Shown: positions 4,902 through 61,662 of the stretch, piece by piece | How positions within the stretch are numbered: the first letter of the stretch is position 1 | Layout: the number at the start of each line of letters is the position of its first letter | Assembly (NCBI GenBank): GCA_029547805.1 | Contig: JAKPOP010000015.1 | Coordinates: 21,556-85,555 of the forward strand | Direction: 5' to 3' | DNA from: Deltaproteobacteria bacterium | GTDB lineage: Bacteria; Myxococcota_A; UBA9042; DTJE01 | Length of the DNA: 64,000 bases | Position numbers and translations under genes: made by a program | The notes under the pieces: model-generated | What the model saw: the letters and a program-made list of their open reading frames with translations, nothing else | Database searches by the model: none | What the model was told of the DNA's origin: nothing

Positions 4902-4902
4902 G

Positions 4903-11863: not shown

Positions 11864-12035
11864 CGTCTCCTCCTGCCCCGAGGGCTCCTGTCCTCCCGAT
11901 GCCCGCCAGCAGGAACCCTGCCCCTCTCGGGGGTCTCCGGGTCCCCCATCTCCGCGCTTGCCTCCGGGCGGTTCGGTGGGATGATAGCACCCGCTGGCAT
12001 GGCTTCTGCTGGCGGTCCCGACGGAGGTCACGCCC

Positions 12036-15018: not shown

Positions 15019-15021
15019 CCG

Positions 15022-20920: not shown

Positions 20921-20938
20921 TGCCGGCAGGCGGGGATC

Positions 20939-41123: not shown

Positions 41124-41125
41124 CC

Positions 41126-42235
41126 ATGCCCCGAGGACCCGAGGACAGCCCCCTGTCGCGGTCGGTCCGGCAGACCCCGACCGTCTTCTGGAACGACTCC
41201 TGTGCCGAGGACGAACTGCGGGATGCCATCGCCCACGGCGCCGTCGGCGGCACGACGAACCCGACCATCGTGCTGGAGGTGCTCCGGAAGGAGTACCGGA
41301 AGTGGCAGCCCCGCATCCTGGCCCTGGCGAAGGAGATGCCCACGGCGTCGGAGGTGGAGATCACCTGGCGCCTGGTGGAGGAGATGGCCCTGGCAGGGGC
41401 GGCGCTGCTGCGGCCGGTCTTCGATGACCTCGGAGGACGCGGAGGACGGATCTCGATCCAGACCAACCCCCAGTTCTACCGGGACGCCCGGGCCCTGGTG
41501 GACCAGGCGGTGCACTTCGCGGGGCTGGCCCCGAACCTCCAGGTGAAGATCCCCGCCACCCGGGCCGGCATCATGGCGATCGAGGAGGCCACCTTCCGGG
41601 GCGTGAACATCAATGCCACGGTCAGTTTCACGGTCCCCCAGGCCCTGGCGGTGGCCGAGGCCGTGGAGCGGGGGCTGGATCGGCGACGGGCGGCAGGTCT
41701 GGACACCGAGTCGATGACCCCGGTCTGCACGATCATGGTGGGACGCCTGGACGACTGGCTGAAGGTCGTCGCGAAACGGGACGGCATCGTCTGCACCCCC
41801 GGGGACCTGGACTGGGCCGGCATCGCCGTGATCAAGAGGGCGTACGGGATCTACCGGGAACGGGGCTACCGGACGCGGCTCCTGGCGGCGGCCTACCGCC
41901 ATCACCTCCACTGGTCCGAGCTGATCGGCGGCGACCTGATCCTGACGATCCCCCATGCGTGGCAGCGACTGTTCCACGACTCGGACATCGAGGTGCGGCC
42001 CCGGTTCGACGACCCGGTGGACCCGGGGATCCTGCAGGGACTGCTGCGGCGATTCCCGGACTTCCGGATGGCCTGTGAACCGGATGGCCTGTCGGTGGAA
42101 CAGTTCGACCGTTACGGGGCCACGGTGCGAACGCTGCGGACCTTCCTGGGGTCCTACGGGGACCTGCTGGCCACGGTGCGGGACGTGCTGCTGCCCGATC
42201 CCGACGTCCGACAGGCCGACGGAGTCGCGCGATGA
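41126..42235 (+). CDS. Transaldolase-family protein (class I aldolase fold)
   Basis: VFWNDSC...GAVGGTTNPTIV...ISIQTNP...NLQVKIPATRAGI...NINATVSFT includes the Schiff-base Lys context of transaldolases. Confidence 0.82.
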   Translation: MPRGPEDSPLSRSVRQTPTVFWNDSCAEDELRDAIAHGAVGGTTNPTIVLEVLRKEYRKWQPRILALAKEMPTASEVEITWRLVEEMALAGAALLRPVFDDLGGRGGRISIQTNPQFYRDARALVDQAVHFAGLAPNLQVKIPATRAGIMAIEEATFRGVNINATVSFTVPQALAVAEAVERGLDRRRAAGLDTESMTPVCTIMVGRLDDWLKVVAKRDGIVCTPGDLDWAGIAVIKRAYGIYRERGYRTRLLAAAYRHHLHWSELIGGDLILTIPHAWQRLFHDSDIEVRPRFDDPVDPGILQGLLRRFPDFRMACEPDGLSVEQFDRYGATVRTLRTFLGSYGDLLATVRDVLLPDPDVRQADGVAR

Positions 42236-43050
42236 CGGACCACCCCTGGCACCTGCGGCATCCCGCTCCATTTTCCCAGGGCACGACGGCCATCACCGGG
42301 ATCGAAAGCGCACCGGGCACGGGCATGGCCTTCGAGGTCGTCGCACTGGCCCCGGGGGAGGTCCGGCAGGAGGTCTTCCAGGAGGAGTCGGCCTGGCTGC
42401 TCATGGAGGGACACGCCGGGCTGACCTGGCCCGGGGGATCGGCCGAGGTCTCGCGCGACTCCCTCTTCGAGGAACTGCCCACGGTGCTGCACCTGCCTCC
42501 GGAGGCCCCCCTGCGCATCGAGGCCCGGTCCCCCGTGGAGTTCGCCCGCATTCGCGTCCCCAATGAACGGACCTTTGATCCGCGGCTGTTCGATCCCGCC
42601 TCGGCGCCGCCGGAGGAGCACCGAGACCTGGGCCGCTGGGACGACATGGCCCACCGCATCGTCCGGACGGTCATCGACCTCGCCAGTCGGCCGGAATCCA
42701 ATCTGGTGCTGGGGGAGGTCATCACGCTGCCGGGACGCTGGTCCAGTTATCCGCCCCACCACCATCCCCATCCCGAGATCTACCACTACCGCTTCACCCG
42801 TCCCCAGGGATACGGCCACGGGGAACTGGGCGACGAGGTCCGGAAGGTCCGCCATCGGGACACGCTGCTGATCCTGGACGGGGTGGACCATGGCCAGGTC
42901 GCCGCCCCGGGATACGGCATGTACTACCTCTGGGTCATCCGGCACCTGCCGGGCCATCCCTACCGGGCGCCGGAGTTCACGAAGGACCACCAGTGGCTGC
43001 AACAGCCGGGGGTCGAGATGCCCCGTTGCGGCAGCAGGAGGAATCCATGA
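42232..43050 (+). CDS. iolB: 5-deoxy-glucuronate isomerase
   Basis: GRWSSYPPHHHPHPEIYHYRF...YGMYYLWVI is an IolB cupin signature. There is an ATGA overlap with the upstream stop. Confidence 0.88.
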   Translation: MTDHPWHLRHPAPFSQGTTAITGIESAPGTGMAFEVVALAPGEVRQEVFQEESAWLLMEGHAGLTWPGGSAEVSRDSLFEELPTVLHLPPEAPLRIEARSPVEFARIRVPNERTFDPRLFDPASAPPEEHRDLGRWDDMAHRIVRTVIDLASRPESNLVLGEVITLPGRWSSYPPHHHPHPEIYHYRFTRPQGYGHGELGDEVRKVRHRDTLLILDGVDHGQVAAPGYGMYYLWVIRHLPGHPYRAPEFTKDHQWLQQPGVEMPRCGSRRNP

Positions 43051-44924
43051 CGGTGCGCCTGACGGTCGCCCAGGCCCTGATCCGCTATCTGTGGAACCAG
43101 CACGTCCGCCGGGACGGCTCGGAGCGACGGTTCTTCGGCGGGGTCTTCGGCATCTTCGGTCATGGCAACGTCGCCGGCATCGGCCAGGCCCTCCAGGAGC
43201 ACCCGGAGGTGCCCTTCGTGCCGTTCCGCAACGAGCAGGCCCAGGTCCACGCCGCCGTGGCCTATGCCCGGACCTGCCGCCGAATGGGGGCGATGGCCTG
43301 CACCTCGTCCATCGGCCCGGGGGCCACCAACATGGTCACCGGCGCGGCGATGGCGACGGTCAACCGGCTGCCGGTGCTGCTGCTCCCCGGGGACCTCTTC
43401 GCCCGGCGCAACGTGGCCCCGGTGCTGCAACAACTGGAGTCGGAGGCGACCCAGGACGTGTCGGTGAACGACTGCTTCCGGCCGGTCTCTCGGTACTTCG
43501 ACCGGATCCAGCGCCCGGAGCAGTTGATCACGTCGCTGCCCGAGGCGATGCGGGTGCTGACGTCCCCGGCCCAGACCGGGGCCGTGACGCTGGCCCTCCC
43601 CCAGGACGTCCAGGCCGAGGCCTTCGACTGGCCCGAGGAGATGTTCCGACGGCGGGTCTGGGTCGTGCCCCGCACGCCGCCGGACCCGGCCCTGCTGGAC
43701 CTGGCGGCGGCGTGGGTCCGGACCTCCCGGCGGCCCCTGGTCGTGGCCGGGGGCGGCGTCCACCACAGCGAGGCCCACGAGGCCCTGGCGCAGTTCTGCG
43801 AGGCCACCGGGATCCCCGTCGGGGAGACCCAGGCCGGCAAGGGAGCCCTGCCCTGGGACCACCCCTGCGCGCTGGGCGGCATCGGGGTCACTGGGGGCCT
43901 GGCGGCGAATCGACTGGCCCGGGAGGCCGACCTGGTGATCGGCATCGGGACCCGCTACTCGGACTTCACCACGGCGTCGAAGACCCTCTTCCAGCACCCC
44001 TCGGTGCGGTTCGTGAACCTGAACGTCGCGGAGTTCGACGCCTTCAAGCACGCGGCCCTGCCGGTCGTCGGGGATGCCCGGACGGCCCTTCAGGGACTGA
44101 CGGCACGCCTTCCGGACTGGCAGGTGGACCCGGCCTTCCGGCAGGAGGTCGAGTCCCTGAAGCGCCAATGGGAGGCCGAGGTCGAACGCCTGCAGGCGCC
44201 CTCCGGTCGGCGCCCCATGACCCAGGCGGAGGTCATCGGCATCCTGAACCGGACGATCCGCCCCGACGGCGTGGTGATCAACGCCGCCGGCAGCGCTCCC
44301 GGAGACCTGCACAAGATCTGGCGCGCCTCCCATCCGGGCCAGTATCACGTCGAGTACGGCTACTCGACGATGGGCTACGAGATCCCGGCAGGTCTCGGGG
44401 TCCGGATGGCGGCGCCGGACCGGGAGGTCATCGTGCTGGTGGGCGACGGCACCTTCCTGATGATGCCCACCGAACTGGTCACGGCGGTCCAGGAGGGGAT
44501 CCGGATGACGGTGGTGCTGGTGGACAACCACGGTTTCGCCAGCATCGGCGGCCTGTCGGAGTCCCTGGGGAGCGGGGGCTTCGGGACCGAGTTCCGCCGC
44601 CGTGCCCCGAACGGGACCCTGTCGGGGGACCGGTTGCCCATCGACTACGTGGCCATTGCCCGGGGACTGGGCGTCCACGGGGTCCGGGCCGAGGATGGAG
44701 AGGCCCTGGCCCGGGAGATCGAGGCGGCCCGGGAACGGCCGGGCACCACGGTGATCGTGGTCGAATGCGACCGGGAGGCCCGCGTCCCAGGATACGAGGC
44801 CTGGTGGGACGTCCAGGTCGCCGAGGTCTCGACGATGGAACCGGTCGTCCAGGCAAGAAGGACGTGGGTCGAGAACGCCCGCCAGGAACGGCACTTCCAC
44901 GGCCCCGAGGGGGAGTCGGCATGA
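43047..44924 (+). CDS. iolD: 3D-(3,5/4)-trihydroxycyclohexane-1,2-dione acylhydrolase (ThDP-dependent)
   Basis: MTVRLTVAQALIRYLWNQ...GIFGHGNVAGIGQAL...NEQAQVHAAVAYAR... and the ThDP motif GDGTFLMMPTELVTAV...N. There is an ATGA overlap with the iolB stop. Confidence 0.9.
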   Translation: MTVRLTVAQALIRYLWNQHVRRDGSERRFFGGVFGIFGHGNVAGIGQALQEHPEVPFVPFRNEQAQVHAAVAYARTCRRMGAMACTSSIGPGATNMVTGAAMATVNRLPVLLLPGDLFARRNVAPVLQQLESEATQDVSVNDCFRPVSRYFDRIQRPEQLITSLPEAMRVLTSPAQTGAVTLALPQDVQAEAFDWPEEMFRRRVWVVPRTPPDPALLDLAAAWVRTSRRPLVVAGGGVHHSEAHEALAQFCEATGIPVGETQAGKGALPWDHPCALGGIGVTGGLAANRLAREADLVIGIGTRYSDFTTASKTLFQHPSVRFVNLNVAEFDAFKHAALPVVGDARTALQGLTARLPDWQVDPAFRQEVESLKRQWEAEVERLQAPSGRRPMTQAEVIGILNRTIRPDGVVINAAGSAPGDLHKIWRASHPGQYHVEYGYSTMGYEIPAGLGVRMAAPDREVIVLVGDGTFLMMPTELVTAVQEGIRMTVVLVDNHGFASIGGLSESLGSGGFGTEFRRRAPNGTLSGDRLPIDYVAIARGLGVHGVRAEDGEALAREIEAARERPGTTVIVVECDREARVPGYEAWWDVQVAEVSTMEPVVQARRTWVENARQERHFHGPEGESA

Positions 44925-45802
44925 CGATCACTTTCCTGGGAGACCTCTGCCGGGATGTCAACATCATCCACGGGGAGGCCCACGCGATGATCGGCGGCGG
45001 GGTCCTGCACAACGGGATGACCGCCCGGGGCATCGGTGCCCACGCGGTGGTGGTCACCCGGTGTTCCCCGGAGGACGAACCGGAGATGACCCGCATGCTG
45101 CGGGAGGCCGGGGTGGAGGTGCATGCCGGAAACGGCCCCACGACCTCCATCGAGAACCTCTACCCCGATCACCACCCGGACCACCGGGTCTCCCGGTTGC
45201 TGTCCCGGTGCGCCCCCTTCACCGAGTCCGACCTCGCCCACGTCCGGGGGGAGGTGGCCCATGTCAATCCCCTCTGGGCCGGGGCCTTCCCGGAGGCGCT
45301 GCTCCCGGTCCTGCGGGCCAGGGTCCGGGTGCTGGGGGCCGATGCCCAGGGGTTCCTGCGACAGGCCGACGAGTCGGGCCGACTGGTCCTGCGGCCATGG
45401 GCCGGCCAGGAGCGCTGGCTCCCGCTGTTCGACGTCTTCAAGGCCGACCTCACCGAGGCGGCGGTGATGACCGGGACCGAGGACCCCCGGGAGGCGGCCC
45501 GGTCCCTGACGGCGATGGGGGTCCGGGAGGTCCTGCTGACCCACCGGGATGGGGTCTGCGTTTCCGACGGCCAGTCCTTCCACGAGGCGGCCTTCGGGCC
45601 CTACCCCCTCTCGGGGCGCACCGGCCGCGGCGACACGTGTTCCGCGGCCTACCTGGTCGCCCGCCAGCGCCTGGCCCCCGGCCCTGCCACCCACTACGCG
45701 GCCCGGGTCACCGCCCTGAAACTCCAGCACCCCGGCCCCTTCGGGGGACAGGGAGCGCCCTACCCATCCCAACTCGCGGAGATCCTGAACGTTTCGCAAT
45801 AG
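44921..45802 (+). CDS. iolC: PfkB-family carbohydrate kinase (candidate 5-dehydro-2-deoxygluconokinase)
   Basis: The PfkB C-terminal signature is GRTGRGDTCSAAYL. There is an ATGA overlap with the iolD stop. It is the last gene of the iol operon. It is shorter and more divergent than a classical IolC. Confidence 0.72.
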   Translation: MTITFLGDLCRDVNIIHGEAHAMIGGGVLHNGMTARGIGAHAVVVTRCSPEDEPEMTRMLREAGVEVHAGNGPTTSIENLYPDHHPDHRVSRLLSRCAPFTESDLAHVRGEVAHVNPLWAGAFPEALLPVLRARVRVLGADAQGFLRQADESGRLVLRPWAGQERWLPLFDVFKADLTEAAVMTGTEDPREAARSLTAMGVREVLLTHRDGVCVSDGQSFHEAAFGPYPLSGRTGRGDTCSAAYLVARQRLAPGPATHYAARVTALKLQHPGPFGGQGAPYPSQLAEILNVSQ

Positions 45803-45872: not shown

Positions 45873-46289
45873 ATGGGTGCGGTGGTTCGCTTCAGTGCGT
45901 CGATCGAGGAGGACCTGTTCCGGCAGTTCGAGGAGGCAACCCGCCGCCGGGGCTATTCCAATCGATCCGAGGCCCTGCGGGACCTGATCCGGGACTCCCT
46001 GGTCCGGGAGGAGTGGGAAGGCGACCAGGAGATCGTCGGGACGGTCACGCTGGTCTATGACCACCACATCCGGGAACTCTCGGACCGCCTCACGGCCCTG
46101 CAGCACGACCATCACCGCGTGATCCTGTCGGCCATGCACGTCCACCTGGACCATGACAACTGCCTGGAGGTCATCGCGGTGAAGGGCCGGGCCTCGAAGG
46201 TCCAGAAGATCGCCGACGCCCTGATCGGTACCCGGGGAGTCAAGCACGGCCGCCTGACGGCCACCACCACCGGCAAGCGCCTCAGATAG
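45873..46289 (+). CDS. nikR: Nickel-responsive regulator NikR (ribbon-helix-helix plus ACT-like metal-binding domain)
   Basis: RFSASIEEDLFRQFEEATRRRGYSNRSEALRDLIR is the RHH domain. HHIRELSDRLTALQHDHHRVILSAMHVHLDHDNCLEV carries the His/Cys Ni-site residues. Confidence 0.9.
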   Translation: MGAVVRFSASIEEDLFRQFEEATRRRGYSNRSEALRDLIRDSLVREEWEGDQEIVGTVTLVYDHHIRELSDRLTALQHDHHRVILSAMHVHLDHDNCLEVIAVKGRASKVQKIADALIGTRGVKHGRLTATTTGKRLR

Positions 46290-47004
46290 GCCCCCGGTGA
46301 TCGGCAGGCATGCGTTCGGCCCACCACCGGGCCACCCGTCCAGGGTCCTCCGTGTCCAGGCAGACCCGGCCCCCATCGAGGACCAGGAAGCGGGAGCAGA
46401 CCGTCCTGGCGAACTCCAGGTCATGGGTGGCCAGGAGGATCGCGGTGTCCAGCCGGCCCAGGAGCAGGGCCAGGCTCCGGCGTCCCACGGGGTCCAGGGA
46501 GGCCGAGGGCTCGTCCAGCAGCAAGAGTTCGGGCCCCGTGACCAGGACCCCGGCCAGGGCCACCCGTTGCTTCTCGCCGTGGGAGAGGTGGTGAACCGGG
46601 GCCTCGGCCAGGGACGCGACGCCAAGGTCCGCCAGGACCTCCCGGGCCCGGATCAGGGCCTCGGAGGCCGGCATCCCCCTCCGCAACAGACTGAAGGCGA
46701 CGTCCTCCTCCACGGTCGGGAACAGCAACTGGTCCTCGGGAACGTTGAACAGGAACCCGACCTGCCGACGAATCTCCCCCAGCGAGTGCCGGTCGAGCCG
46801 CCGGCCGCCAACGTGGATCAGGCCCCGGTGCGGAACCAGACCCACCGCGGCCTTCAACAGCGTCGTCTTGCCACTCCCGTTCCGTCCCACCAGGGCGACC
46901 CGCTCTCGGTGCCCCACCACCAGGGAGACCCCCTCGAGGACCCCGGGCCCTGGGGACTCGTAACAGACCGCGACGTCCTCGAATGCGATGGCCGGGGGAG
47001 TCAT
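46282..47004 (-). CDS. cbiO: ECF/ABC transporter ATPase (CbiO/EcfA-like)
   Basis: Walker A GRNGSGKTT, signature LSHGEKQRVA and Walker B LLLLDEP. The start at ATG 47004 overlaps the cbiQ stop (ATGA). Confidence 0.9.
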   Translation of the reverse strand: MTPPAIAFEDVAVCYESPGPGVLEGVSLVVGHRERVALVGRNGSGKTTLLKAAVGLVPHRGLIHVGGRRLDRHSLGEIRRQVGFLFNVPEDQLLFPTVEEDVAFSLLRRGMPASEALIRAREVLADLGVASLAEAPVHHLSHGEKQRVALAGVLVTGPELLLLDEPSASLDPVGRRSLALLLGRLDTAILLATHDLEFARTVCSRFLVLDGGRVCLDTEDPGRVARWWAERMPADHRGPI

Positions 47005-47747
47005 CGCGCCCCCCAGATCCACAGGGAGACGACCAGAGACAGGACCGCCAGTCCCAGGGCCACCCGGTCCCGTCCCCCGGGACGACAGGATCGAAGAGGC
47101 GCCGGGTCCGCCTCGGCATATCCCCGGATGGCCATCGCCTCCCCCACCCGCTCGGCCCGGGAGGCCACCCGGGGAAGCCAGACCCGAGGCAGCGCCCGGG
47201 CCAGTGCCACCGCCCCCCTGCCCCGCCCGGTCGCGCCCCGAAGGTTCCAGGCCGCGGCGACGGCCCCGGTCTCCGACGCCAATGTCGCGGTCTGGTGGAC
47301 AATCTGCAACAGGATGGCAGTGACGATGGCCGGAATCGGCAGCCTGACCAGGGCCTCCCGGAGGTCGCTCGCCGTCAGGGACGCAAGGGTCGCTCCGCAG
47401 ATCAGGATCCCGCCGATGCCTCGAATGATCACGGCGGCAGGAACGGCCAGGGCCTCCCGGACCCCTCCCCCCTCGGGGACCGAGACCCATGGAACCAGCA
47501 GGAAGTACGGCAGGAACAGGGCCAGGCCCAGCAGGAGGCCGGCACCGACCAGTCGGAGCGGGGGACGGATCGCCACCACCCAGGCCCCCAGAACCACCAG
47601 GGCCCAGAGGGTCCCAGGGACCGACGGGACCGGCGACGACAGGTACGCCGCCAGCACCAGCAGACCGGCCCCCAGGCGGGTTGGGGGACACAGGGACCGC
47701 ACCGGACCGGTCGCCGATCCCCACAGCCGGTGCCAGGAGGTCCGCAT
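47001..47747 (-). CDS. cbiQ: ECF transporter transmembrane (T) component, CbiQ-like
   Basis: A multi-TM protein with the ARG-type coupling region (AAWNLRGATGRGRG...AMAIRGY). It is positioned between the S-like component and the ATPase. Confidence 0.8.
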   Translation of the reverse strand: MRTSWHRLWGSATGPVRSLCPPTRLGAGLLVLAAYLSSPVPSVPGTLWALVVLGAWVVAIRPPLRLVGAGLLLGLALFLPYFLLVPWVSVPEGGGVREALAVPAAVIIRGIGGILICGATLASLTASDLREALVRLPIPAIVTAILLQIVHQTATLASETGAVAAAWNLRGATGRGRGAVALARALPRVWLPRVASRAERVGEAMAIRGYAEADPAPLRSCRPGGRDRVALGLAVLSLVVSLWIWGAR

Positions 47748-47752
47748 CCCGC

Positions 47753-48364
47753 CTACTCCCGTGGCTTCTCCCCGGTCACCAGGTAGCGCCGTTCCGTGTC
47801 TTCCATCGTCCGGACCTGGAACCCGACGGTCTCCAGCAGCGCCGCGGTCTGGTCCCCTGGCGCCAGCAGGTCCGATCCCACGGGGCCTCCCTTGCCCTGG
47901 TGGATCTCATTGACCCGCTGCCGGGAGATCAGGTGCCAGACGTGCAACAGGCCGCCGGGCCGGAGCACCCGGAAGACCTCCCTGGCCACCCCGTCCGGAT
48001 CTCGGAAGTGGGGCCATACGCCGAGGCAAAAGACCCGGTCGCACCGGCCATCCCCGATGGGCAGCCGGCAGGCGTCGGCGACATTCCAGGACACGCGCCC
48101 ATCGTGGATCTTCTCCCGAGCGACGGCGATCATCGCCGGGGAAAAGTCCACCGCCACCACCCGGCCCTCCGGCGAGAGGCAGTCCAGGATCGCCCGGGTC
48201 AGGTTGCCGGTGCCGCACCCGATATCCACCACCGTCTCCCGAGGCCCCACGCCGAGTTCCGACAGGCCCTCCTGGAGCAGCAGGCGCAACCGATCCAGGT
48301 CCTCCCATCCGTCCCAGTCCCGGGCGATGGCATCGAAGAAGGCCACTCTGGGGTCATCAGGCAT
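47753..48364 (-). CDS. Class I SAM-dependent methyltransferase
   Basis: Motif I is VVDIGCGTGNLT. Also present: VVAVDFSPAMI and LRPGGLL. It is embedded inside the ECF transporter operon and overlaps the upstream gene by 8 nt. Confidence 0.85.
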   Translation of the reverse strand: MPDDPRVAFFDAIARDWDGWEDLDRLRLLLQEGLSELGVGPRETVVDIGCGTGNLTRAILDCLSPEGRVVAVDFSPAMIAVAREKIHDGRVSWNVADACRLPIGDGRCDRVFCLGVWPHFRDPDGVAREVFRVLRPGGLLHVWHLISRQRVNEIHQGKGGPVGSDLLAPGDQTAALLETVGFQVRTMEDTERRYLVTGEKPRE

Positions 48365-48908
48365 CGGTTTCCTCCAGGGAATGGGGCTCGCCGGTCCGCC
48401 CCAGGGATCGCCGGGACGCCCGAACCACCGGCGGAATCACCGCCATCATGAGCAGGATCCCAGGCCACCCGCTCAGGAAGGAGACCCCGGCCAGGAAGGA
48501 CGCTGGCAGGTCGATCCACCACGAGAAGGCATAGACCAGGCCCACCTGCAGCAGGCGCCCTCCCGCGAGCACCGGGGCCAGCACGAGCCACTCCGGGACC
48601 CGGGGCCACCGGTGGGACACCACCGAGATCACCAGCGCCATGGCCCCCAGTTCCAGGGCCATGAAGACCGCCACCGGAGGATAGAACGGCGGCATCCCGG
48701 TGGCCGCCCCGGACAGCAGGGGCGTCACCAGGGCCGTGACCGCCGCAGCCGCAGGCCCCACGAAGAACGGCAGCGTGCACAGGGGCAGGTACATGGGCAT
48801 GAAGACGGACCCGAGGTGCAGCAGGTGGAACAGCACCGGCAGCAGCAACGCCGCAGCCCCGAAAAGGCCGCACCAGGCCAGTTCCCGGGGCGTCAACCGA
48901 CCGCTCAT
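48357..48908 (-). CDS. Small polytopic membrane protein, putative ECF substrate-capture (S) component (family unassigned)
   Basis: It has ~6 hydrophobic segments (GLFGAAALLLPVLFHLL, PLCTLPFFVGPAAAAV, PVAVFMALELGAMALVI...). The start at ATG 48908 overlaps the TonB-receptor stop (ATGA). It is not a canonical CbiM (no MHI..G N-terminus). Confidence 0.55.
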   Translation of the reverse strand: MSGRLTPRELAWCGLFGAAALLLPVLFHLLHLGSVFMPMYLPLCTLPFFVGPAAAAVTALVTPLLSGAATGMPPFYPPVAVFMALELGAMALVISVVSHRWPRVPEWLVLAPVLAGGRLLQVGLVYAFSWWIDLPASFLAGVSFLSGWPGILLMMAVIPPVVRASRRSLGRTGEPHSLEETDA

Positions 48909-50818
48909 CCGCCCAACCCCACCTTCAGGCCCGCCAGGACGTGGAACCCGGGCATCTCGTAGCCCCGGATGTATTCGTACTTCCGATTCATCAGGTTGCG
49001 AAGGACCAGCCAGGGCTCCAGGGTCCAGTCCTTGCCAGGGGGCTCCAGGCGGTAACGCACCGCCAGGTCCAGGAAGAAGGGGTCCGGGATCGGTTCCCGG
49101 CGGTAGTTGGCCATGTAGAGGCCATGCACCCACTCGCCGCTGACCTCCCCTTCCAGGCGATGGGAACCCCACCGGTGTCCCAGCGTAGCGGCGAAGTCCA
49201 GCATCGCCTCGGGATTCTGGCGGGTGTAGCGGCCGACCCGCTGCCAGGACCCGGCCACCGTCGCCCCGAAGGGTCCCAGGTCCCGGACTCGGACCCGCCC
49301 CTCGAGGCCCCAGACCGTGTAGGCATCGATGTTGACCACCTCAGCGGCCGGCCAGGACCCGAAGTACCGGATCAGGTTCCGGGCCTGCGATCGATAGGCG
49401 GTCAGGGAGACCTCCAGGTGCCGGAAGTCCTCGTAGCCCAGCGTGGCGTCCCAGTTCAGGGAGGTCTCGGGCCGCAGGTCCGGGTTCGCGACGGGATAGG
49501 GCAGATAGAGTTCCCGGATCGTCGGCTGGCGGTAGTTCCGGGTGACCCGGGTGCGCACGGACCATCCCCGCCAGAAGTTCCAGCGGACCCCGGCCTTCCC
49601 GAGCCAGAGGAACCCCCATCTCAGGCTGTAGAGTTCCCGGGACCCGACCACCAGGGACAGCCCCTGGACGGGCCGCCAGAGGACCTGTTGCCAGGCCGCC
49701 AGGTCCACCATCGCCCGGACATCCGTCGCGGTCCCCTGGATGCGGTTGCGGACCTCCCCGTCCATGTCCTGGGCCTCAACCCCCCCCAGGACCTCCCAGT
49801 TCCGATGTGGCCGCCAGCAGACCTCGCCCCGGCCACCCAGGGTCCAGTCCAACGACTGGAATCCATCATGGAGCCGGTGGCGACCCAGGGTCGCGTAGGG
49901 CAGCAGGGTCACCCGGAGCCCCGGGCGCTGGTACTCGAGGGCCCCCGAGAGGTTGTCCCTCCAGACATCGAAGGTGTGGTCCGTGAAGGGATGCTGGACC
50001 GTGCCGGGGTCACCGCCGGTGACGTGGACCGCCTTGTTGCGCAGCACCAGGGACCACCCCGGGGCGAGCCGAAGGCGCCCGGCGCTCTGGATCACCAGCA
50101 CGCTGCCGCCGGCCCCGTCCCGGTGGCCATCGGTTCGCATCCCATGGAGGGCGAAGGCCCCCTCCCATCCATCCTTCCGTCCCAGGGCCGTCACGGTGCC
50201 CTGGAGGGTCGCAAAACTGCCGTAGGCGGCGTCCGAGCGTACCTCCCATCCATCCTCGGGCAACCAGCGGCTCCGGAGCACGATGGCGGCCCCCATCGCG
50301 TTGCTGCCGTAGAGCACCGAGTCGCCGCCCTCCACCACGACGGCCTGGTCGATCAGGTCCGGGACATAGGCATCCGGAAGGGGATGTCCGAAGATGCCCT
50401 GGACGTCGGGCACGCCGTCCTCGACCACCAGGACCTGGGTGTTGGGGCTTCCTCCGAGCCCCCGGACCGTCAGGCCCCCGGCGGCGCCGCTGGCAACCCC
50501 CGCGGGCCCGACACCGCGCCGAGTGACGTGGATGGACGCCGATTCCTGGGCCAGGGCCTCGAGCAGGGTCGGTCTGGGGCTCTCCCGCAACCGCTCGCCG
50601 GGAACGGCCACCTGGTCCTGGGTCTGGTCCGGCGACACGGGCCGCGAAGCCTGGATCACGGTCTGGTGGTCCGGCGCCGCACCGGGCGTCGGCACGGCAG
50701 CATCCCCCGGCTCCTCCCCCTCCTCGGGCGGCGGGGACGGGGCCTCCTCGGGGGATCCGGCCCTGGCCGGCGGACCCAGCACCAGCAACAGGAACACCAG
50801 CCACGGAGCGCCGCGCAT
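48905..50818 (-). CDS. TonB-dependent outer-membrane receptor
   Basis: The signal peptide is MRGAPWLVFLLLVLGPPARAG. Plug motifs include LLEALAQESASIHV, GLTVRGLGGSPNTQVLVVEDGVP and VVVEGGDSVLYGSNAMGAAIVLRSR. The start is at Met 50818. Confidence 0.88.
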   Translation of the reverse strand: MRGAPWLVFLLLVLGPPARAGSPEEAPSPPPEEGEEPGDAAVPTPGAAPDHQTVIQASRPVSPDQTQDQVAVPGERLRESPRPTLLEALAQESASIHVTRRGVGPAGVASGAAGGLTVRGLGGSPNTQVLVVEDGVPDVQGIFGHPLPDAYVPDLIDQAVVVEGGDSVLYGSNAMGAAIVLRSRWLPEDGWEVRSDAAYGSFATLQGTVTALGRKDGWEGAFALHGMRTDGHRDGAGGSVLVIQSAGRLRLAPGWSLVLRNKAVHVTGGDPGTVQHPFTDHTFDVWRDNLSGALEYQRPGLRVTLLPYATLGRHRLHDGFQSLDWTLGGRGEVCWRPHRNWEVLGGVEAQDMDGEVRNRIQGTATDVRAMVDLAAWQQVLWRPVQGLSLVVGSRELYSLRWGFLWLGKAGVRWNFWRGWSVRTRVTRNYRQPTIRELYLPYPVANPDLRPETSLNWDATLGYEDFRHLEVSLTAYRSQARNLIRYFGSWPAAEVVNIDAYTVWGLEGRVRVRDLGPFGATVAGSWQRVGRYTRQNPEAMLDFAATLGHRWGSHRLEGEVSGEWVHGLYMANYRREPIPDPFFLDLAVRYRLEPPGKDWTLEPWLVLRNLMNRKYEYIRGYEMPGFHVLAGLKVGLGG

Positions 50819-50828
50819 CCGGGCCTCC

Positions 50829-51248
50829 TCAGTGCCCGTAAGGGCCCGGAATGGAAAAATCCTGCTCCAGCGCGTCGCCCCCCTGGACCTCGATGACCCG
50901 GAAGTCCCCGGCGTCGACGGTCCACTGGGCCACGGTCTGGTAGTTGAACCACAGGGGCCCGGTGGTTGCCTCCTCGGGGTCCATCCGTTGCTCCGCGAAC
51001 TGGTCCAGGTCCAGTTTCTGGAAGTGCACCTGGTCCCGACCCGGAAGGCAACGCCTGGGGACCGTCGCATCCCCGTAGTTGAGGGTCGCCTCCCAGCGGC
51101 ACCCGTTGAAGGAGGGATTGCGGATCACCACCGCGGTGTCGATGCGGTTCACGACGACGACCTCCGGGTAGCGGAGGTCGCAGCCCAACAGGCCCCCGAT
51201 GGCCAGCAGCCAGAGGCGAGACCGGGGAACCTGGCGGCGGCGTTTCAC
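50829..51248 (-). CDS. Small lipoprotein, unknown function
   Basis: The GTG start at 51248 gives VKRRRQVPRSRLWLLAIGGLLGC (a lipobox). It is a ~139-aa Cys-containing protein directly upstream of the TonB receptor. Confidence 0.5.
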   Translation of the reverse strand: MKRRRQVPRSRLWLLAIGGLLGCDLRYPEVVVVNRIDTAVVIRNPSFNGCRWEATLNYGDATVPRRCLPGRDQVHFQKLDLDQFAEQRMDPEEATTGPLWFNYQTVAQWTVDAGDFRVIEVQGGDALEQDFSIPGPYGH

Positions 51249-51258
51249 CCGCGCCTCG

Positions 51259-51756
51259 CTACTCTGGCAGGCACTGGGTGTTCTCCGTGCGCTGGGCATA
51301 GGGCTTGAATCCGTACTCGGGGTACAGTTCCAGGATGCGGTTATAGACCGTCTCCGGAATGGGCGGAACCCCCTCCGGCGGGCAGGGGCCCTGGTGGCTG
51401 GGCTTCCCGATGGCAATCGTCCGGGTCTGGCCGTCCACCACCTCCTCCTCATTTTTCGATGCGATGGGCAGGCAGTTCTCCGGGTGGCACTCCGGGTCGT
51501 CCCAGGCGGCGACCATGAGCACGTAGTCCAGCCCCGGCTCGACCTTCTGGGGCGCCGAGGTCTCTCCGATGCCGATCCGGCCGAACTCCACCCCCAGGTA
51601 GGTGGCCCGGCAGATCGTCCACGGGGGCTTGAACCCCTCCACTGCAGGGTTGTTGAAGTCATTCTGGATCTGCACCGTCGCCGACTCGGTACCCGTCTCG
51701 CACCCTGCGACGGCCACGGTCCACAGCCCCAACGCCACGAGCATCCGCCTGTCCAT
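51259..51756 (-). CDS. Small lipoprotein, unknown function
   Basis: MDRRMLVALGLWTVAVAGC (a lipobox). It is 165 aa with several Cys residues and is the first gene of the lipoprotein / TonB receptor / ECF operon. Confidence 0.6.
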   Translation of the reverse strand: MDRRMLVALGLWTVAVAGCETGTESATVQIQNDFNNPAVEGFKPPWTICRATYLGVEFGRIGIGETSAPQKVEPGLDYVLMVAAWDDPECHPENCLPIASKNEEEVVDGQTRTIAIGKPSHQGPCPPEGVPPIPETVYNRILELYPEYGFKPYAQRTENTQCLPE

Positions 51757-51782
51757 GCCTCCTCCGGTTCCGGGTTCCCCCG

Positions 51783-51811
51783 GATATTACGACTGTCCCG
51801 GAAGTAATATC
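51783..51811. promoter_or_regulatory. Perfect dyad GATATTAC-N13-GTAATATC (candidate NikR operator)
   Basis: A perfect 8-bp inverted repeat separated by 13 nt, 27-55 nt upstream of the first gene (start 51756) of the putative Ni/Co uptake operon. The two half-sites separated by more than one helical turn match the architecture of known NikR operators. Confidence 0.5.
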
Positions 51812-52013
51812 ACCGGCACTGCGGCCTTGCAATCCGGAGGGACAGTCACCGGCTGACCCACTTCAACCTACCGTATCCACTGCTGTTTCCAAGAACCTCG
51901 CGACCCACGGGGTCGAGTCCGACGCCGAGTGGGGCAGGACCCGCTCCCGGACGCCTCGACCATCCGGTCGGCCGTGGAAGCACCGATGGGCCTCAGGAAG
52001 GCGGGATCGCCGG

Positions 52014-54179
52014 TCAACGTCCCGGCGGGCGGAACGACGGGGATCGCGTGAGGCCGTCCCACCGGTGATCCAGCAGGGCCAGCAACAGCCCCAGCAGACG
52101 ACGGTCCCCGGGTTCGCCGGCGGGAGTCTCCCGGAGCAGGCACAGGCGAAAATGTCGGGACGCCAGGAAGGCCTCGGTCCGACTCTCGCCCCCGAACAGG
52201 TCCCCCTGCAAGACCCGATCCCCCACCCGGATCCCCAGGCGCAGGGCCCCCTCCTCCGATCCCTCCACCGGGCGCAGAGAGGCGATGCGGAGACTGCCGA
52301 GGTCCCCGGGAAGCCCCCGGGCCAGCACCCGAGCCACGTCCCGGACCACCCGGGCCTCCCGTGGCAGGGTCTCCTCGCCCACCAGGGGGTCGAGCCAGTC
52401 GGCCACCGGGGTCGCCCCCCTTTCCTGGGAGGCCCTCAGCACCACCCTGGGGTCCTCCCGGAGCCGCCGATGCCGGGGCCGGGGGTCCTCGTCCAGGGGG
52501 CATCGCCGGGCCGCCTCGGCCAGAGCACCGGACAGCAGCGCCCGGGGGTCCTGCTCCACGCCGTCCCGTTCCACCCGGTCCAGCAGCACCAGTCCCAGGT
52601 CCAGCGGCAGGAACCGGGCCCCCTGGACCAGATCCCGGATCCACGGGAAGTCCGGGTCGTCGCGGAAGTACCAGCACTCCGCTCCGTCGTTCCAGGCCGC
52701 GAAGGCCCGGACGAACCATCGGAAGAAGCAGGCAGTGCGCGGGTCCAGGAAGTGCCAGGGAAGGGCCCCGTGGATGTCCTCGAACAGGGTCACCGGCACA
52801 TAGAGGATTCCCCGGTCCTCGTAGTGGTCCCGGAGGATGCCTCCCTGGGCCCGTGCCAGGGCGGTGATGGGCGTCGTGCGGACCAGGAGCAGGGTCGACA
52901 CCATCCAGAAGCCCGTCGGGTCCAGGCCCAGCCGCCGCCCCTCCTCCAGGTTGATCCGGATGTCCTCCGGGAGGGTCCAGGGGGTGAAGAAAATGAAGGA
53001 CCAGGCCGATCGTCCGCCGTCGCCGTGGAAGAACTCGAACCCCTCGGGGAAGCGCTGCTGCCACTCCTGCTGCAACGCGATGACCCCCTCGATGTGGTCC
53101 ATGGTCAGGCGCTTGTTGAACCGGGCCATCTCCGCCGGAGAGAAGGTCTCGATGCCCATGATCAGGGTCTTCAGCACGTGCCCCGCGGCCAGCATCCCGG
53201 GAATCGCCGCCTCGATGGCCTCCCGCTCGCGCAGCACATCATCCAGCCGAGGAGCGAAATAGAACGTCGAGGGGGGCATCTCCAGGTCCAGCACCATCCG
53301 ACAGAAGCGCTGCACCTCCGAGAGCATGTCGTAGTCAAAGACCATGTAGGCATTCTTGTTCCGCAGCGACCGTCCCGGCGGCGCGGCCAGGATGCGCCGC
53401 AACTGGCTCTCGATCAGGGCCAGGCGATCGACGCGGGGCGAGTGCAGGGGCGGTGTCGGGGAGCCGCCGCAATAGGAGCAGCCCGTGATGACTCGACACT
53501 CCTTGAGGTCCACCCCGTCGAAGATCGGGTTGTCGGCCACCGACGGCTTGCCCCCGCAGGAGACCCCGCTGACCAGCACCAGGTTGCTCCCGGCGGCGGC
53601 ACTCTCCTGGTCCAGGGGCTCCGCGTCGTAGTGCGGCGTCACGTGTTCCACCAGGTACCGGGTCGCCTCCTCGGGGGCCTCGATGCCCAGGAATCGCAGG
53701 AACCAGTAGGGACGGGCGTAGTACCAGGGATTGTCCCGCGGATGAAGGGTCCGGGCCACCTGGGCCAGCACCGGGTCCGGACCCTGGAGATACTCCTCGC
53801 GACGGAAGTGGAATTCCTTGCCGGCGGGCATCGACAGGATGACCAGCCCCGGCGGGGTTGCGCCCCGGATGGCCTCCTCGGTCTCCCGGGAGAGGTCCTC
53901 CGTGACCACCAGATGGGTCGGGGCGAAGTCCCGAAGACGGCGGGCCAGCGTCTCCAACTGTCCCGGTTCCAGGTCGGCGTGGAGCAGCCGCCCCTCCTGC
54001 CGATCCTCATGGCGACGGATCCGGGAGAGGGCGAACCACCACTGGGCCTCCACCCCGTGCTCTCGGGCCGTCCCCAGCAGGAACGGGAAGAACATGCTCC
54101 GCTCGTTGACCCGGTCGTACTGGACCAGGAATTCCAGCAGGACCAGCCTCGGGGGCGCTCCCGCCTCGGGTCGTTCCAT
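52014..54179 (-). CDS. Large radical-SAM-like protein (N-terminal Rossmann/B12-binding-like region, CX5CX2C motif, long unique C-terminal region)
   Basis: The 721-aa ORF has coding-like composition. The Cys cluster is KECRVITGCSYCGG (53469..53498). A radical-SAM-core-like stretch is TLIMGIETFSPAEMARFNKRLTMDHIEG. It is the last gene of the minus-strand nitrogenase-like operon. The family assignment is tentative. Confidence 0.55.
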   Translation of the reverse strand: MERPEAGAPPRLVLLEFLVQYDRVNERSMFFPFLLGTAREHGVEAQWWFALSRIRRHEDRQEGRLLHADLEPGQLETLARRLRDFAPTHLVVTEDLSRETEEAIRGATPPGLVILSMPAGKEFHFRREEYLQGPDPVLAQVARTLHPRDNPWYYARPYWFLRFLGIEAPEEATRYLVEHVTPHYDAEPLDQESAAAGSNLVLVSGVSCGGKPSVADNPIFDGVDLKECRVITGCSYCGGSPTPPLHSPRVDRLALIESQLRRILAAPPGRSLRNKNAYMVFDYDMLSEVQRFCRMVLDLEMPPSTFYFAPRLDDVLREREAIEAAIPGMLAAGHVLKTLIMGIETFSPAEMARFNKRLTMDHIEGVIALQQEWQQRFPEGFEFFHGDGGRSAWSFIFFTPWTLPEDIRINLEEGRRLGLDPTGFWMVSTLLLVRTTPITALARAQGGILRDHYEDRGILYVPVTLFEDIHGALPWHFLDPRTACFFRWFVRAFAAWNDGAECWYFRDDPDFPWIRDLVQGARFLPLDLGLVLLDRVERDGVEQDPRALLSGALAEAARRCPLDEDPRPRHRRLREDPRVVLRASQERGATPVADWLDPLVGEETLPREARVVRDVARVLARGLPGDLGSLRIASLRPVEGSEEGALRLGIRVGDRVLQGDLFGGESRTEAFLASRHFRLCLLRETPAGEPGDRRLLGLLLALLDHRWDGLTRSPSFRPPGR

Positions 54180-54238: not shown

Positions 54239-55060
54239 TCAGACGTCCAGGTCCCGCAACAAGCCCATCAGTTCCCGCCGCTCCAGGGGGACCGGCAGCG
54301 GCAGGTCCGGGGGCAGCGGGGCCCGGACTGCCTCGGCCAGGGCACGGAACCGCTCCGCCGCCTCGCTGGTCGGGGCATCGTCAATCACGGTCCGGTTGCG
54401 CCGCTCTGCCTCCCGGACCTCGCGACTCCAGGGAATGAAGCCGAGCACCCGGGCCTTCAGGCGCCCGGCAAAACCCCTCAAGGCCTCCTCGATGGCCGGG
54501 TCCAGGGCCTTCACGTTGAAGACGATCCCTGCGAGTTGCACCCCGTCGTCCACATGGTTCAGCAGGGCCTTGCAGACGTTGTTCGCGGCGTAGAGGGCCA
54601 TCGGTTCCGCCGAGGCCACGATCACGACCCGGTTGCCCAGGCCGTAGCGCAGGGGAGCCACGAAGCCTCCACAGACCAGGTCCCCCAGGACGTCGAACAA
54701 CGCCACGTCGTACGGCCACGAGAGGAGATCCCGGGCCTCCAGCCAGTCGAAGAGGTTCGCGACGCCGCGACCCGCGCACCCGACCCCCGGGTCCGGGCCC
54801 CCGATCTCGATGGTGTCCACCCCCGTGGGCCCGGGCACGATCACCTCGTCGGGACGGCGCCTGTTCAGGGACCGGTCCGCGATGAAATCCAGCACTGCCG
54901 GGCCCTCCCGGTCCCCCCGCAGACGAAGGGACGAGTCCATCTTGGGGTCGCACCCCACGTGGAGCACCCGGAGCCCGGCCTCGCGCCACGCGGCGCTCAG
55001 GTGCACCGCCACCGTGGACTTGCCGATTCCCCCCTTGCCGTAGAGCACCACCCGCAACAT
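54239..55060 (-). CDS. NifH/BchL-family ATPase (nitrogenase-like reductase component 2), copy 1
   Basis: MLRVVLYGKGGIGKST (P-loop), GCDPKMDS (switch I), GGPDPGVGCAGRGV and FDVLGDLVCGGF (the two [4Fe-4S] Cys ligands), and YAANNV. The start is at Met 55060. Confidence 0.9.
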   Translation of the reverse strand: MLRVVLYGKGGIGKSTVAVHLSAAWREAGLRVLHVGCDPKMDSSLRLRGDREGPAVLDFIADRSLNRRRPDEVIVPGPTGVDTIEIGGPDPGVGCAGRGVANLFDWLEARDLLSWPYDVALFDVLGDLVCGGFVAPLRYGLGNRVVIVASAEPMALYAANNVCKALLNHVDDGVQLAGIVFNVKALDPAIEEALRGFAGRLKARVLGFIPWSREVREAERRNRTVIDDAPTSEAAERFRALAEAVRAPLPPDLPLPVPLERRELMGLLRDLDV

Positions 55061-55079
55061 CCGCCCGTCCCTCCCGGTC

Positions 55080-56375
55080 TCAGAGCGGGGTTCGAAACCC
55101 GCGCACCAGGGCCGCATCCCTCCACTGGGACGCCTCGACCAGCCGATCCGTGAGCCACAGCGCCCCCTCGAATCCCAGCCAGGGCTCCGGCCGCGTGGGA
55201 TGGCGCAGGAAGTTCGGGTACCCCAGGGGAAGCAGCCCCGGAACCGGCAGCGGATCCGGGAAGGCCGTCGATGCGATGCGCAGGTCGGCCTCCGGCTCCG
55301 GAACCTCGTCATGCGGCGCCTCGAAGACCCAGGAGCCGTCCACCACCGGGTCCCCGTCCAGGTGCTCCCGTCTCCCCAGGACGTCCACGAGCACCGTCTC
55401 CACCCCCAGGTCATCCAGGAAGTCCCGAAGTCCCCGGACCAGGAAGGGGTCCCCCTGGATCACCGCCTGCCGCCCGTGCAGGAATCGAAAGGCCCGGTCC
55501 CGGACCAGTGGCACGACCCGGGTCAGTTCGCGGTCCAGGAAGGTCTCGCCCGTCTCCCGCAGCCCCAGGGCCTCGGCGACGGCCCGGACAAAGGCGCCGG
55601 TCCCCCGCAATCCCACCGGGAGCGGGGCCTGCACGCAGGGAACTCCCAGGCGTCCCGCGAGGATCCGCCCCGCCGCCCGCCCGTATGGAAGGGTCACCAC
55701 CGCCGAGGCCCGCCCCGCCCGGGCCAGATCGGTGACCAGGCGGCCGTCGAGCCACAGAGAGGCGATGTCCGCCCCGACACCACGAACGAGCCGGTAAATC
55801 TCGTCGACGTTGCCCAGGCAGTCCCCCTCCCGCCGATCCATCAGGTGCCCCACCACGGCCACCTGCCCCGGCAGCGGTCCCCCAGGGTCCAGGTCCAGGT
55901 CCGCCGCCAGCCGCTCCAGCACCCGGGAGTGACCGTCGATCCAGTCCGCCTCGAGGGACTCGGAAGGGACCCGGACCACCCGGGCATGCCCCTTCGCCTG
56001 GGCCCGCCGGCGATGCTGCTCCAGCGGCTCGTTGAGCAGGTGGTTGAAGTCCATGCTGGACACGACGACCAGACGAAAGCGGGGGTCCTGGGCAGCGCCC
56101 TCCAGCACCTCGCCGATGTCGCGGCTGCGGTTCAAGGCCATGCTGGGAACGACGCTGGTGTTGAACCGGATGTCGGTGTGGAGCAGGCGACCGGGCCCGT
56201 CGGCCCGCACCAGGTCCGAGGCGGGGTCGTGGGCCATGTGCAACTCGGCCTTCTGGACCAGACAGTAGGGACCGTCGACCACGAGGGCCGCGTCCCGGAT
56301 GGCGCTGACGGCGAGGTAGAGTCCATTCAGAAACGGGAGGTTGTGGGGGATCGGGGGCCGGGAGGCGCGAGTCAC
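55080..56375 (-). CDS. Nitrogenase component-1-like subunit, small (431 aa), copy 1
   Basis: It is a paralogue of 61663..62967 and has an Oxidored_nitro-like architecture (VVDGPYC..., VAVVGHLMDRREGD..., LPYGRAAGRILAGRLGVP...LPVGLRGT). The GTG at 56375 overlaps the upstream stop (GTGA). Confidence 0.75.
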   Translation of the reverse strand: MTRASRPPIPHNLPFLNGLYLAVSAIRDAALVVDGPYCLVQKAELHMAHDPASDLVRADGPGRLLHTDIRFNTSVVPSMALNRSRDIGEVLEGAAQDPRFRLVVVSSMDFNHLLNEPLEQHRRRAQAKGHARVVRVPSESLEADWIDGHSRVLERLAADLDLDPGGPLPGQVAVVGHLMDRREGDCLGNVDEIYRLVRGVGADIASLWLDGRLVTDLARAGRASAVVTLPYGRAAGRILAGRLGVPCVQAPLPVGLRGTGAFVRAVAEALGLRETGETFLDRELTRVVPLVRDRAFRFLHGRQAVIQGDPFLVRGLRDFLDDLGVETVLVDVLGRREHLDGDPVVDGSWVFEAPHDEVPEPEADLRIASTAFPDPLPVPGLLPLGYPNFLRHPTRPEPWLGFEGALWLTDRLVEASQWRDAALVRGFRTPL

Positions 56376-58498: not shown

Positions 58499-58755
58499 TG
58501 TGCTGCACCCCGAGCCCGAAGGCAGTCTATGCCCAGGGCCCGCGCCTATCAAGGCGACCCCGCGATGTCGGGCCCCGGACCGACGCGCGACAGGAACCTC
58601 CGGGTGTTGGAGGAGAATCCCATCCACGACACCGCCATCGTTCGAGGCGGCGGGTCCCCCTCGCGGTTCGATGGCCCCCAGGGCCACGGCCGAGGATTCC
58701 GGGTCTCGTTTCGCCGCGTCCGCGAGTAGAATCCTTCCGCACCGGGGAGGCTCCG

Positions 58756-61655: not shown

Positions 61656-61662
61656 GGTACCG

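Follow-up and report, generated by a model that had tools for sequence, protein, structure and literature searches.

A window of 64,000 nucleotides from a Deltaproteobacteria bacterium (positions 21,556 to 85,555 of contig JAKPOP010000015.1, assembly GCA_029547805.1) contains nikR and, converging on it, a seven-gene operon on the minus strand. The operon encodes two lipoproteins, a TonB-dependent receptor (TBDR), the S component of an energy-coupling factor (ECF) transporter, a class I S-adenosylmethionine (SAM) methyltransferase (MT), CbiQ and CbiO. This locus is probably, at a rough probability of 0.68, a high-affinity operon for nickel acquisition, repressed by nickel, in a diderm member of the Myxococcota. 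What is new here is an undescribed and widespread family of S components together with an obligate methyltransferase, and neither the theme of a TBDR combined with an importer nor the position beside a nitrogenase-like (Nfl) gene cluster. The genes and sites of the locus are as follows, in coordinates of the window.

45873-46289, plus strand: nikR, nickel-responsive ribbon-helix-helix repressor (Pfam RHH_1 and NikR_C; NCBIfam NikR equivalog)
46282-47004, minus strand: cbiO, ECF A component, a CbiO-type ATP-binding cassette (ABC) ATPase and the last gene of the operon (PF00005/ABC_tran, NCBIfam)
47001-47747, minus strand: cbiQ, ECF T component (PF02361)
47753-48364, minus strand: class I SAM methyltransferase, between the S and T genes (Methyltransf models)
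48357-48908, minus strand: S-like membrane protein of 183 amino acids, ECF S component (sub-threshold PF12822; fold by structure search)
48905-50818, minus strand: TonB-dependent receptor (plug and barrel models)
50829-51248, minus strand: lipoprotein 2, 139 amino acids, GTG start (signal peptide and lipobox Cys23)
51259-51756, minus strand: lipoprotein 1, 165 amino acids, first gene of the operon (signal peptide and lipobox Cys19)
51783-51811, no strand: candidate NikR operator GATATTAC-N13-GTAATATC (perfect inverted repeat)
51806-51832, minus strand: possible sigma-70-like promoter (TTGCAA at 51832-51827, a 17-nucleotide spacer and TATTAC; read by eye)

The transcription order is lipoprotein 1, lipoprotein 2, TBDR, S, MT, CbiQ and CbiO according to the open reading frame map, inspection of start sites and scans with hidden Markov models (HMMs), and an independent gene caller run on the source contig returned identical gene models. 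These approaches reproduce the places and order of all eight genes proposed in an earlier note, which was made from the sequence alone. That note had also described tight coupling with several ATGA overlaps; such overlaps are present at two junctions (TBDR/S and cbiQ/cbiO), the S and MT genes overlap by 8 nucleotides and the remaining operon junctions are gaps of 5-10 nucleotides. The convergent nikR and cbiO genes also overlap by 8 nucleotides. Contigs from a sludge metatranscriptome match 45937-46117 (nikR) and 47900-48078 (the MT gene), as well as the nearby gene for a 721-amino-acid protein and NflH, NflK and NflD. This was a single run with nine short contigs at a depth of about 3, which is too sparse for co-transcription or regulation, and at most it indicates that the region is transcribed.

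The gene order is not due to chance, as dozens of genomes at species level share it. In a scan with one genome for each GTDB species, the S protein was found in at least 132 species, and the best 80 loci of these were examined. All 80 loci are from metagenome-assembled genomes (MAGs) and they represent about ten phyla overall: Myxococcota, Acidobacteriota/Aminicenantes, Verrucomicrobiota, Kiritimatiellia, Lentisphaerae, Planctomycetota, Fibrobacterota, Bacteroidota, Ignavibacteriota, Bdellovibrionota and candidate phyla. The window itself derives from a sludge or digester metagenome, and the closest genome is a Myxococcota MAG (L008) in which the S protein is 85% identical. Synteny was scored by tblastn of the window proteins on the loci, counting only loci with enough flanking sequence, and the contexts given by gene calls agree with the result. 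The S, MT, CbiQ and CbiO genes are found in this order in 66 of 70 loci. A receptor lies directly upstream of the S gene in 33 of 57 loci, and both lipoproteins are present in 29 of 57, mainly in Myxococcota. Of 50 loci, 20 have nikR no more than 3.7 kb away. Its placement takes at least three forms: downstream and convergent, immediately before S, or before the receptor gene. The conserved core is thus the cassette S-MT-T-A, often accompanied by receptor, lipoprotein and nikR genes as accessories. The S family is undescribed, unnamed and widespread in uncultured anaerobes. No description of the S-MT-CbiQ-CbiO cassette was found in the literature on NikR and nickel, ECF transporters and methyltransferases, an absence that is no proof of novelty.

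The identity of NikR is given by the NikR_C domain (E = 1.7e-33) and by the NCBIfam equivalog NF003381 (199 bits against a cutoff of 105). All the high-affinity nickel ligands of the His3Cys site are kept (H78, H89, H91 and C97), which we take to be the counterparts of H76, H87, H89 and C95 in E. coli. The candidate operator, which was not mentioned in the earlier note, is an 8+8 palindrome situated 27 nucleotides upstream of the ATG of lipoprotein 1. It occurs a single time in the window, which has about 70% G+C, and none of 100 shuffles contained a match even when 3 mismatches were accepted. The published NikR signal in delta-proteobacteria is GTGTTAC-[N13/14]-GTAACAC (PMC545781), and the core of the palindrome, ATATTAC-N13-GTAATAT (51784-51810), has two symmetric mismatches to it. 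The TATTAC hexamer of the possible sigma-70-like promoter overlaps the upstream half of the NikR box.

The 80 loci were also scanned for GTRTTAC-N13/14-GTAAYAC with at most 2 mismatches, the leader being defined as the 510 bp before the first gene of the operon. A NikR box is present in the leader of 24 loci, 38-350 nucleotides upstream of the first gene; nine of these boxes are perfect to the degenerate pattern, including five with the exact sequence GTGTTAC...GTAACAC. These 24 sites fall within 36.8 kb of leader sequence, compared with 16 in the other 1.16 Mb of the same loci, and most of the 16 stand immediately before a neighbouring nikR or receptor gene. In 1.02 Mb of unrelated Nfl loci, taken as a control, there were 4 weak sites. 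Boxes also occur where nikR is not nearby (L012, L014, L020, L035, L054, L056, L058, L060 and L081), which fits a regulon member controlled in trans. From these sequence comparisons the operon is concluded to be a member of the nickel regulon, with the palindrome as its predicted operator. The suggestion in the earlier note of NikR-linked metal uptake through a TBDR and an ECF importer is thereby strengthened, with an operator in the leader, conservation of the operator in orthologous leaders and a linked nikR in the 20 of 50 loci mentioned above.

In a related metagenome contig (L095, 10871-15899) nikR has the S-MT-CbiQ-CbiO cassette on one side and, on the other, a nickel ECF system of the canonical CbiM/NikM type, which consists of an ABC ATPase, a 190-amino-acid protein, a CbiM-family protein, two unknown proteins and a DUF4198 (NikK-like) protein. 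Both types of transporter coexist there under one regulator gene.

The S protein is not easily recognised from its sequence. The sole Pfam match is PF12822 at 20.6 bits, below the cutoff of 30.7; there is no match to CbiM/NikM (PF01891) at E up to 0.01 and none in NCBIfam, and a profile of the S component gave no match among PDB sequences. An AlphaFold model built from a 16-sequence alignment has a predicted local distance difference test (pLDDT) value of 87.6. The top 14 Foldseek matches of the model in PDB are all vitamin-type S components (RibU, ThiT, BioY, FolT and 4hzu_S) with template modelling (TM) scores of 0.5-0.65, and no CbiM structure is among the matches. The model confirms that the protein is a true S component with a predicted small six-helix fold of the vitamin type, and not of the metal-specific CbiM type. 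A protein search placed its homologues in 879 clusters at 60-75% identity across phyla. The invariant residues include H28, E86, M37, M72, M83 and M90, and C13 is conserved in at least 90%.

The two other components are more conventional. CbiQ matches PF02361 at 37.9 bits (cutoff 25), and both of its x-Arg-Gly coupling motifs (LRG and IRG) are conserved across 74 homologues. CbiO matches PF00005 at 96 bits and is 41-64% identical in 74 related loci; its top NCBIfam matches are cbiO (TIGR01166) and ECF_ATPase_1/2, all under the equivalog cutoffs. The S fold, a T component with coupling motifs and a CbiO-type ATPase that characterise an ECF importer are all present. The accessory proteins NikN, or NikK (DUF4198) and NikL, were not found in the operon with Pfam or NCBIfam. 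The description of the system as a CbiMNQO-like importer in the earlier note is consequently right about the ECF type, as seen in CbiQ and CbiO, but not about the substrate-binding part, where CbiM, NikM, NikN, NikK and NikL are missing and a vitamin-type S component and an embedded methyltransferase are found.

What stands out most in the locus is the fixed position of the methyltransferase between the S and T genes, kept in 66 of 70 loci, and we know of no precedent for such an invariant partnership in ECF transport. The protein matches Methyltransf_25/11/12/31 at E-values of 1e-24 to 1e-16. The top NCBIfam match is the DVU_1556 family (NF045667) at 76.2 bits, under the cutoff of 155, which makes it a non-member. 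Its relatives in PDB are generic small-molecule methyltransferases that give no clue to the substrate. The SAM motif DIGCGTG and the residues C113, W117-P118-H119, H141, H144 and H155 are conserved in at least 90% of 77 sequences, a His/Cys pattern that is suggestive of a site for a metal or a metal ligand. One locus (L071) lacks the methyltransferase altogether, and L015/L093 has a class I methyltransferase gene after cbiO. The latter was considered as the same gene retained in another place, and this was rejected as the similarity, at 30% identity, is confined to the SAM domain and lacks the WPH motif. In this locus (L093 = L015, 3743-10748) the genes before S encode NifU_N, cysteine desulfurase, ARMT1-like, radical SAM and Lactamase_B proteins, with no receptor or nikR nearby.

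The partnership may point to uptake of chemically modified or chelated nickel. A nickel-organic complex is a serious possibility because the S component has a vitamin-type fold and TBDRs usually take chelates. A tentative refinement of the nickel reading, possible but clearly less probable than that reading as such, is that the operon imports an organic nickel chelate (a nickelophore) and that the methyltransferase modifies the ligand in the cytoplasm to release nickel or trap the product. The six-helix S component, which is without the N-terminal metal-binding extension of CbiM/NikM, agrees with this, and so does the greater constancy of the methyltransferase compared with the receptor (66 of 70 versus 33 of 57 loci), with its conserved His/Cys cluster beside an intact SAM site. 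The position of the cassette next to a NikM-type ion transporter in L095 also suggests that the two have different substrates. Genes for chelator biosynthesis or export are not linked to the locus, however, the His, Cys, Glu and Met residues of the S component could bind bare Ni(II), and one or two lineages (L071 and L015/L093) lack an orthologous methyltransferase. It is a rather doubtful further step to regard S-MTase-CbiQ-CbiO as an unrecognised class of ECF transporter with an obligate methyltransferase, in which uptake of a nickelophore, scavenged in anoxic habitats and processed chemically on arrival, is coupled to ligand methylation. If this is true, many uncultured anaerobic phyla use methylation-coupled uptake in place of, or alongside, NikMNQO.

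The receptor has a Plug domain (42 bits) and a TonB_dep_Rec_b-barrel domain (77.8 bits), both above the cutoffs, and only remote matches to models of haem, B12 and siderophore receptors and to solved receptors. Genes for ExbB, ExbD and TonB follow directly after the cassette in two loci (L003 and L020). Another TonB-dependent receptor in the window (20939-22933) was considered as a relative of the receptor in the nickel locus and rejected, the identity being 28% and confined to the plug. That receptor forms a pair with a 170-amino-acid lipoprotein (20408-22933, plus strand) and the preceding open reading frame is NTPase_1/DUF2478 (18966-20411).

The two lipoproteins belong to no Pfam or NCBIfam family. 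The lipobox cysteine is invariant in both when comparing 31-33 homologues (31 for lipoprotein 2). The mature part of lipoprotein 1, which is 51-81% identical in 19 aligned homologues, has conserved cysteines at C49, C90, C125 and C162, an invariant H121 in the motif HQGPCPPEG and an EEE motif. A profile of this protein gave nothing significant in PDB, and its single-sequence model had a pLDDT of 35, so that no fold was read from it. In lipoprotein 2, C67, P98, W100, Y103 and the C-terminal GPYGH-COOH are invariant and C50 and H75 are 90% conserved. The lipoproteins might be partners of the receptor that capture nickel or a chelate, or periplasmic shuttles.

The earlier note left the metal as nickel or cobalt. 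This is narrowed to nickel because the NikR box is present and a cobalamin riboswitch is absent: the box and the NikR ligands favour nickel over cobalt. The window showed no riboswitch of any type, and the leader has no Rfam match at E up to 1. In 7 related loci the only riboswitches seen are directed away from the cassette. In L021 two tandem cobalamin riboswitches (7790-8669, minus strand; 116 and 80 bits) are located 1.3-2.2 kb upstream of the cassette on the opposite strand, and would control the divergent genes instead. Uptake of cobalt or of a B12-type corrinoid, with a BtuB-like receptor and an importer resembling ECF-CbrT, is very improbable. The T and A components do bear the family names CbiQ and CbiO, the S component is of the vitamin type, and there are weak similarities to the TonB-B12 model in the receptor (48 bits, cutoff 600) and to the corrinoid-protein-associated methyltransferase CpaM in the methyltransferase (47 bits, cutoff 180). 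All of these B12 scores are far under their cutoffs, the conserved element in the leaders is a NikR box, and the ligands in NikR are those for nickel.

The nickel acquisition operon would work as follows. When nickel is sufficient, nickel-loaded NikR would bind the palindrome at 51783-51811, which overlaps the likely promoter and 5' leader, and turn off the seven genes; bound there, it would also block read-through from the upstream Nfl operon. When nickel is scarce the operon would be expressed. The TBDR, probably aided by the two lipoproteins with their Cys and His residues, would import nickel through the outer membrane, the most likely form being a small chelate. The inner membrane would then be crossed through a dedicated ECF transporter, in which the new S component is joined by the CbiQ-type T component and a homodimer of the CbiO ATPase. 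In the cytoplasm the methyltransferase might act on what has been imported or on the ligand of the metal, which could, for instance, be released or trapped in this way.

Several observations weigh against nickel acquisition. The S component resembles vitamin-type S components and not CbiM/NikM, so the substrate could be organic. The methyltransferase is without precedent in nickel uptake and the role proposed for it is a guess. A recognisable NikR box is present in only about 30% of the related loci and a linked nikR in about 40%, and a scan for consensus promoters passed none upstream of the operon. The window encodes no nickel enzyme. NikR regulons can also hold nickel-independent functions, for example a predicted Fe-only hydrogenase (PMC545781). 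The operon might accordingly import a non-nickel compound that is needed during nickel starvation, such as one for a nickel-independent back-up pathway, and the pairing of a vitamin-type S component with a small-molecule methyltransferase would suit this, as would the presence of nickel-independent isoenzymes in NikR regulons (PMC545781). This is unlikely, as the cassette is tied repeatedly and independently to nikR, to NikR boxes and to the nickel transporter in L095, for which nickel import is the simplest explanation, and as no genes of a back-up pathway are linked.

The neighbours of the nickel operon on its upstream side are two sets of nitrogenase-like genes and the gene for the 721-amino-acid protein.

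52014-54179, minus strand: 721-amino-acid protein between the Nfl genes and the nickel operon (no HMM match)
54239-58687, minus strand: NflD (708 amino acids), NflK (431 amino acids) and NflH (273 amino acids) (two Oxidored_nitro proteins and a NifH-like protein)
58756-62967, plus strand: second, divergent set with a NifH-like gene (58756-59586) and two Oxidored_nitro genes (about 59.6-61.66 kb and 61663-62967)

The 721-amino-acid protein was labelled as a radical SAM protein in the earlier note. The label is unproven, as there is no Pfam or NCBIfam match to support it. A large protein search found 3 matches to this protein (itself and two at 84% and 82%), and 11 matches to NflK at E up to 1e-10. 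In 10 other metagenome loci, weak homologues with 25-35% identity adjoin NflD, NflK and NflH genes, and L090 encodes a 660-amino-acid homologue (E = 7e-44) that shares the cysteine pattern C...GCS[YF]C and a stretch MG[IV]E[TN]FS with the protein in the window. Because its homologues accompany Nfl genes elsewhere, the 721-amino-acid protein belongs to the Nfl system and not to the nickel system. Judged from these sequences it looks like an uncharacterised accessory of the Nfl clade.

The distance of about 260 bp between the nickel operon and the Nfl side, as given in the earlier note, was measured to 257 bp from the stop of the 721-amino-acid gene at 52014. The genes are co-directional and no terminator was predicted between them, which makes read-through possible. 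That the nickel locus and the cluster of Nfl genes and the 721-amino-acid gene are one unit, in which nickel or cobalt is supplied for a nickel-tetrapyrrole or another nitrogenase-like cofactor, is nevertheless highly unlikely. The same adjacency is found in L008 and probably also in the contig carrying P0003 and P0123, but these are near relatives (82-85% identity), and among the 45 cassette loci that have 9.5 kb or more of sequence upstream, the Nfl genes flank only that of the sister lineage L008. Conversely, neither cassette genes nor nikR were found in 80 metagenome loci with NflK relatives (28-83% identity), of which the two closest (82-83%) are on contigs of less than 4 kb that are short of the downstream region and unscorable, and no cassette genes were found at 5 places from three further NflK relatives (L088-L092). 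The Nfl operons have no NikR box, there is no good box in the 80 loci with NflK relatives, and the NikR box between the two operons separates their regulation. In a MAG with the locus-tag prefix FJ087_ both systems are present, apparently on separate contigs.

The similarity of NflH to CfbC could be seen as a link to nickel. CfbCD is the Ni-sirohydrochlorin a,c-diamide reductive cyclase in F430 synthesis, and NflH scores almost equally on the models for CfbC (246 bits) and NifH (249 bits), but both scores are far below the cutoffs (402 for CfbC). In contrast to the single CfbD there are two Oxidored_nitro subunits of 708 and 431 amino acids, and no genes similar to cfbA, cfbB or cfbE turned up in the survey of the window. 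The adjacency is a quirk of one lineage and the Nfl cluster is not part of the nickel system. The functional connection between the two loci that the earlier note had put forward does not hold when genomes are compared: the loci are unlinked in related genomes, the outcome that the note itself had named as speaking against it. Recognising the adjacency as lineage-specific keeps an unsupported link between nickel and nitrogenase-like proteins out of annotation.

A distant Nfl locus (L088, 1934-13154) has an IcmF-like gene for a fused B12 mutase/MeaB upstream, and a gene for an unknown protein of 601 amino acids and a genuine B12-binding radical SAM gene downstream. This hints that the distant Nfl clade of L088 is associated with cobalamin rather than with nickel.

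The remainder of the window contains several other gene clusters. A cluster for the shikimate pathway (4194-9732, plus strand) includes apparent fusions of shikimate dehydrogenase with shikimate kinase (4834-6216) and of chorismate synthase, chorismate mutase and 3-deoxy-D-arabino-heptulosonate 7-phosphate (DAHP) synthase domains in one open reading frame (7375-9732). It is followed at 9944-16209 by mevalonate/isoprenoid genes for a GHMP kinase, a polyprenyl synthetase, an FMN-dependent dehydrogenase of the type 2 isopentenyl diphosphate isomerase (IDI-2) kind and 3-hydroxy-3-methylglutaryl-coenzyme A (HMG-CoA) reductase. A catabolic cluster of carbohydrate/inositol type (39186-45802, plus strand) ends just before nikR and is unrelated to nickel; it encodes an aldehyde dehydrogenase, TAL_FSA, a KduI/IolB-like protein, a thiamine pyrophosphate (TPP) enzyme and a 293-amino-acid protein.

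Anaerobes use nickel in hydrogenases, CO dehydrogenase and other key enzymes, and the routes known to carry it through the inner membrane are NikABCDE, NiCoT-type permeases and NikMNQO. The locus described here would add a fourth route, as yet without a name, or would at least define a new family of substrate-binding proteins, and automated annotation at present overlooks a likely nickel importer in the groups that carry it.

NikMNQO, NikKMLQO and CbiMNQO are described as group-I ECF transporters of nickel or cobalt under NikR (Rodionov et al. 2004, PMC545781; Rodionov 2006, via PMC11247825). The locus resembles NikMNQO in having a dedicated CbiQ-type T component, a single CbiO ATPase, a predicted NikR operator of the GTGTTAC-N13-GTAACAC type and extra extracytoplasmic parts in the operon. 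It differs in that a vitamin-type S component of 183 amino acids replaces CbiM/NikM, that a methyltransferase gene is placed between the S and T genes, and that two novel lipoproteins are found where NikK and NikL would be.

On the outer membrane side, FrpB4 and FecA3 of H. pylori are known nickel receptors, and Bll6948, Daro_3944 and NikH have been predicted as such by comparative genomics (PMC11247825). A TBDR together with an ABC or ECF importer of nickel under NikR is therefore already a known theme (PMC11247825; PMC545781), and the architecture is not as uncommon as the earlier note had assumed. The receptor is like these five in belonging to a locus for nickel uptake that is probably under NikR control. 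Unlike them, its gene shows translational coupling to that of an ECF S component and comes after two lipoprotein genes.

The S component has the predicted six-helix fold and the length of about 180 amino acids in common with RibU, ThiT, BioY, FolT and HmpT. It differs from these vitamin S components in sequence (12-18% identity), in its predicted control by NikR and not by a vitamin riboswitch or regulator, and in having a dedicated T/A module where theirs is shared. The methyltransferase, finally, is similar to the DVU_1556 family and to UbiE/ArsM-like methyltransferases in its Rossmann fold and intact DxGxGxG motif, but is set apart from the DVU_1556 family by its own signature of C113, WPH119, H141, H144 and H155 and by its fixed place in an ECF operon.

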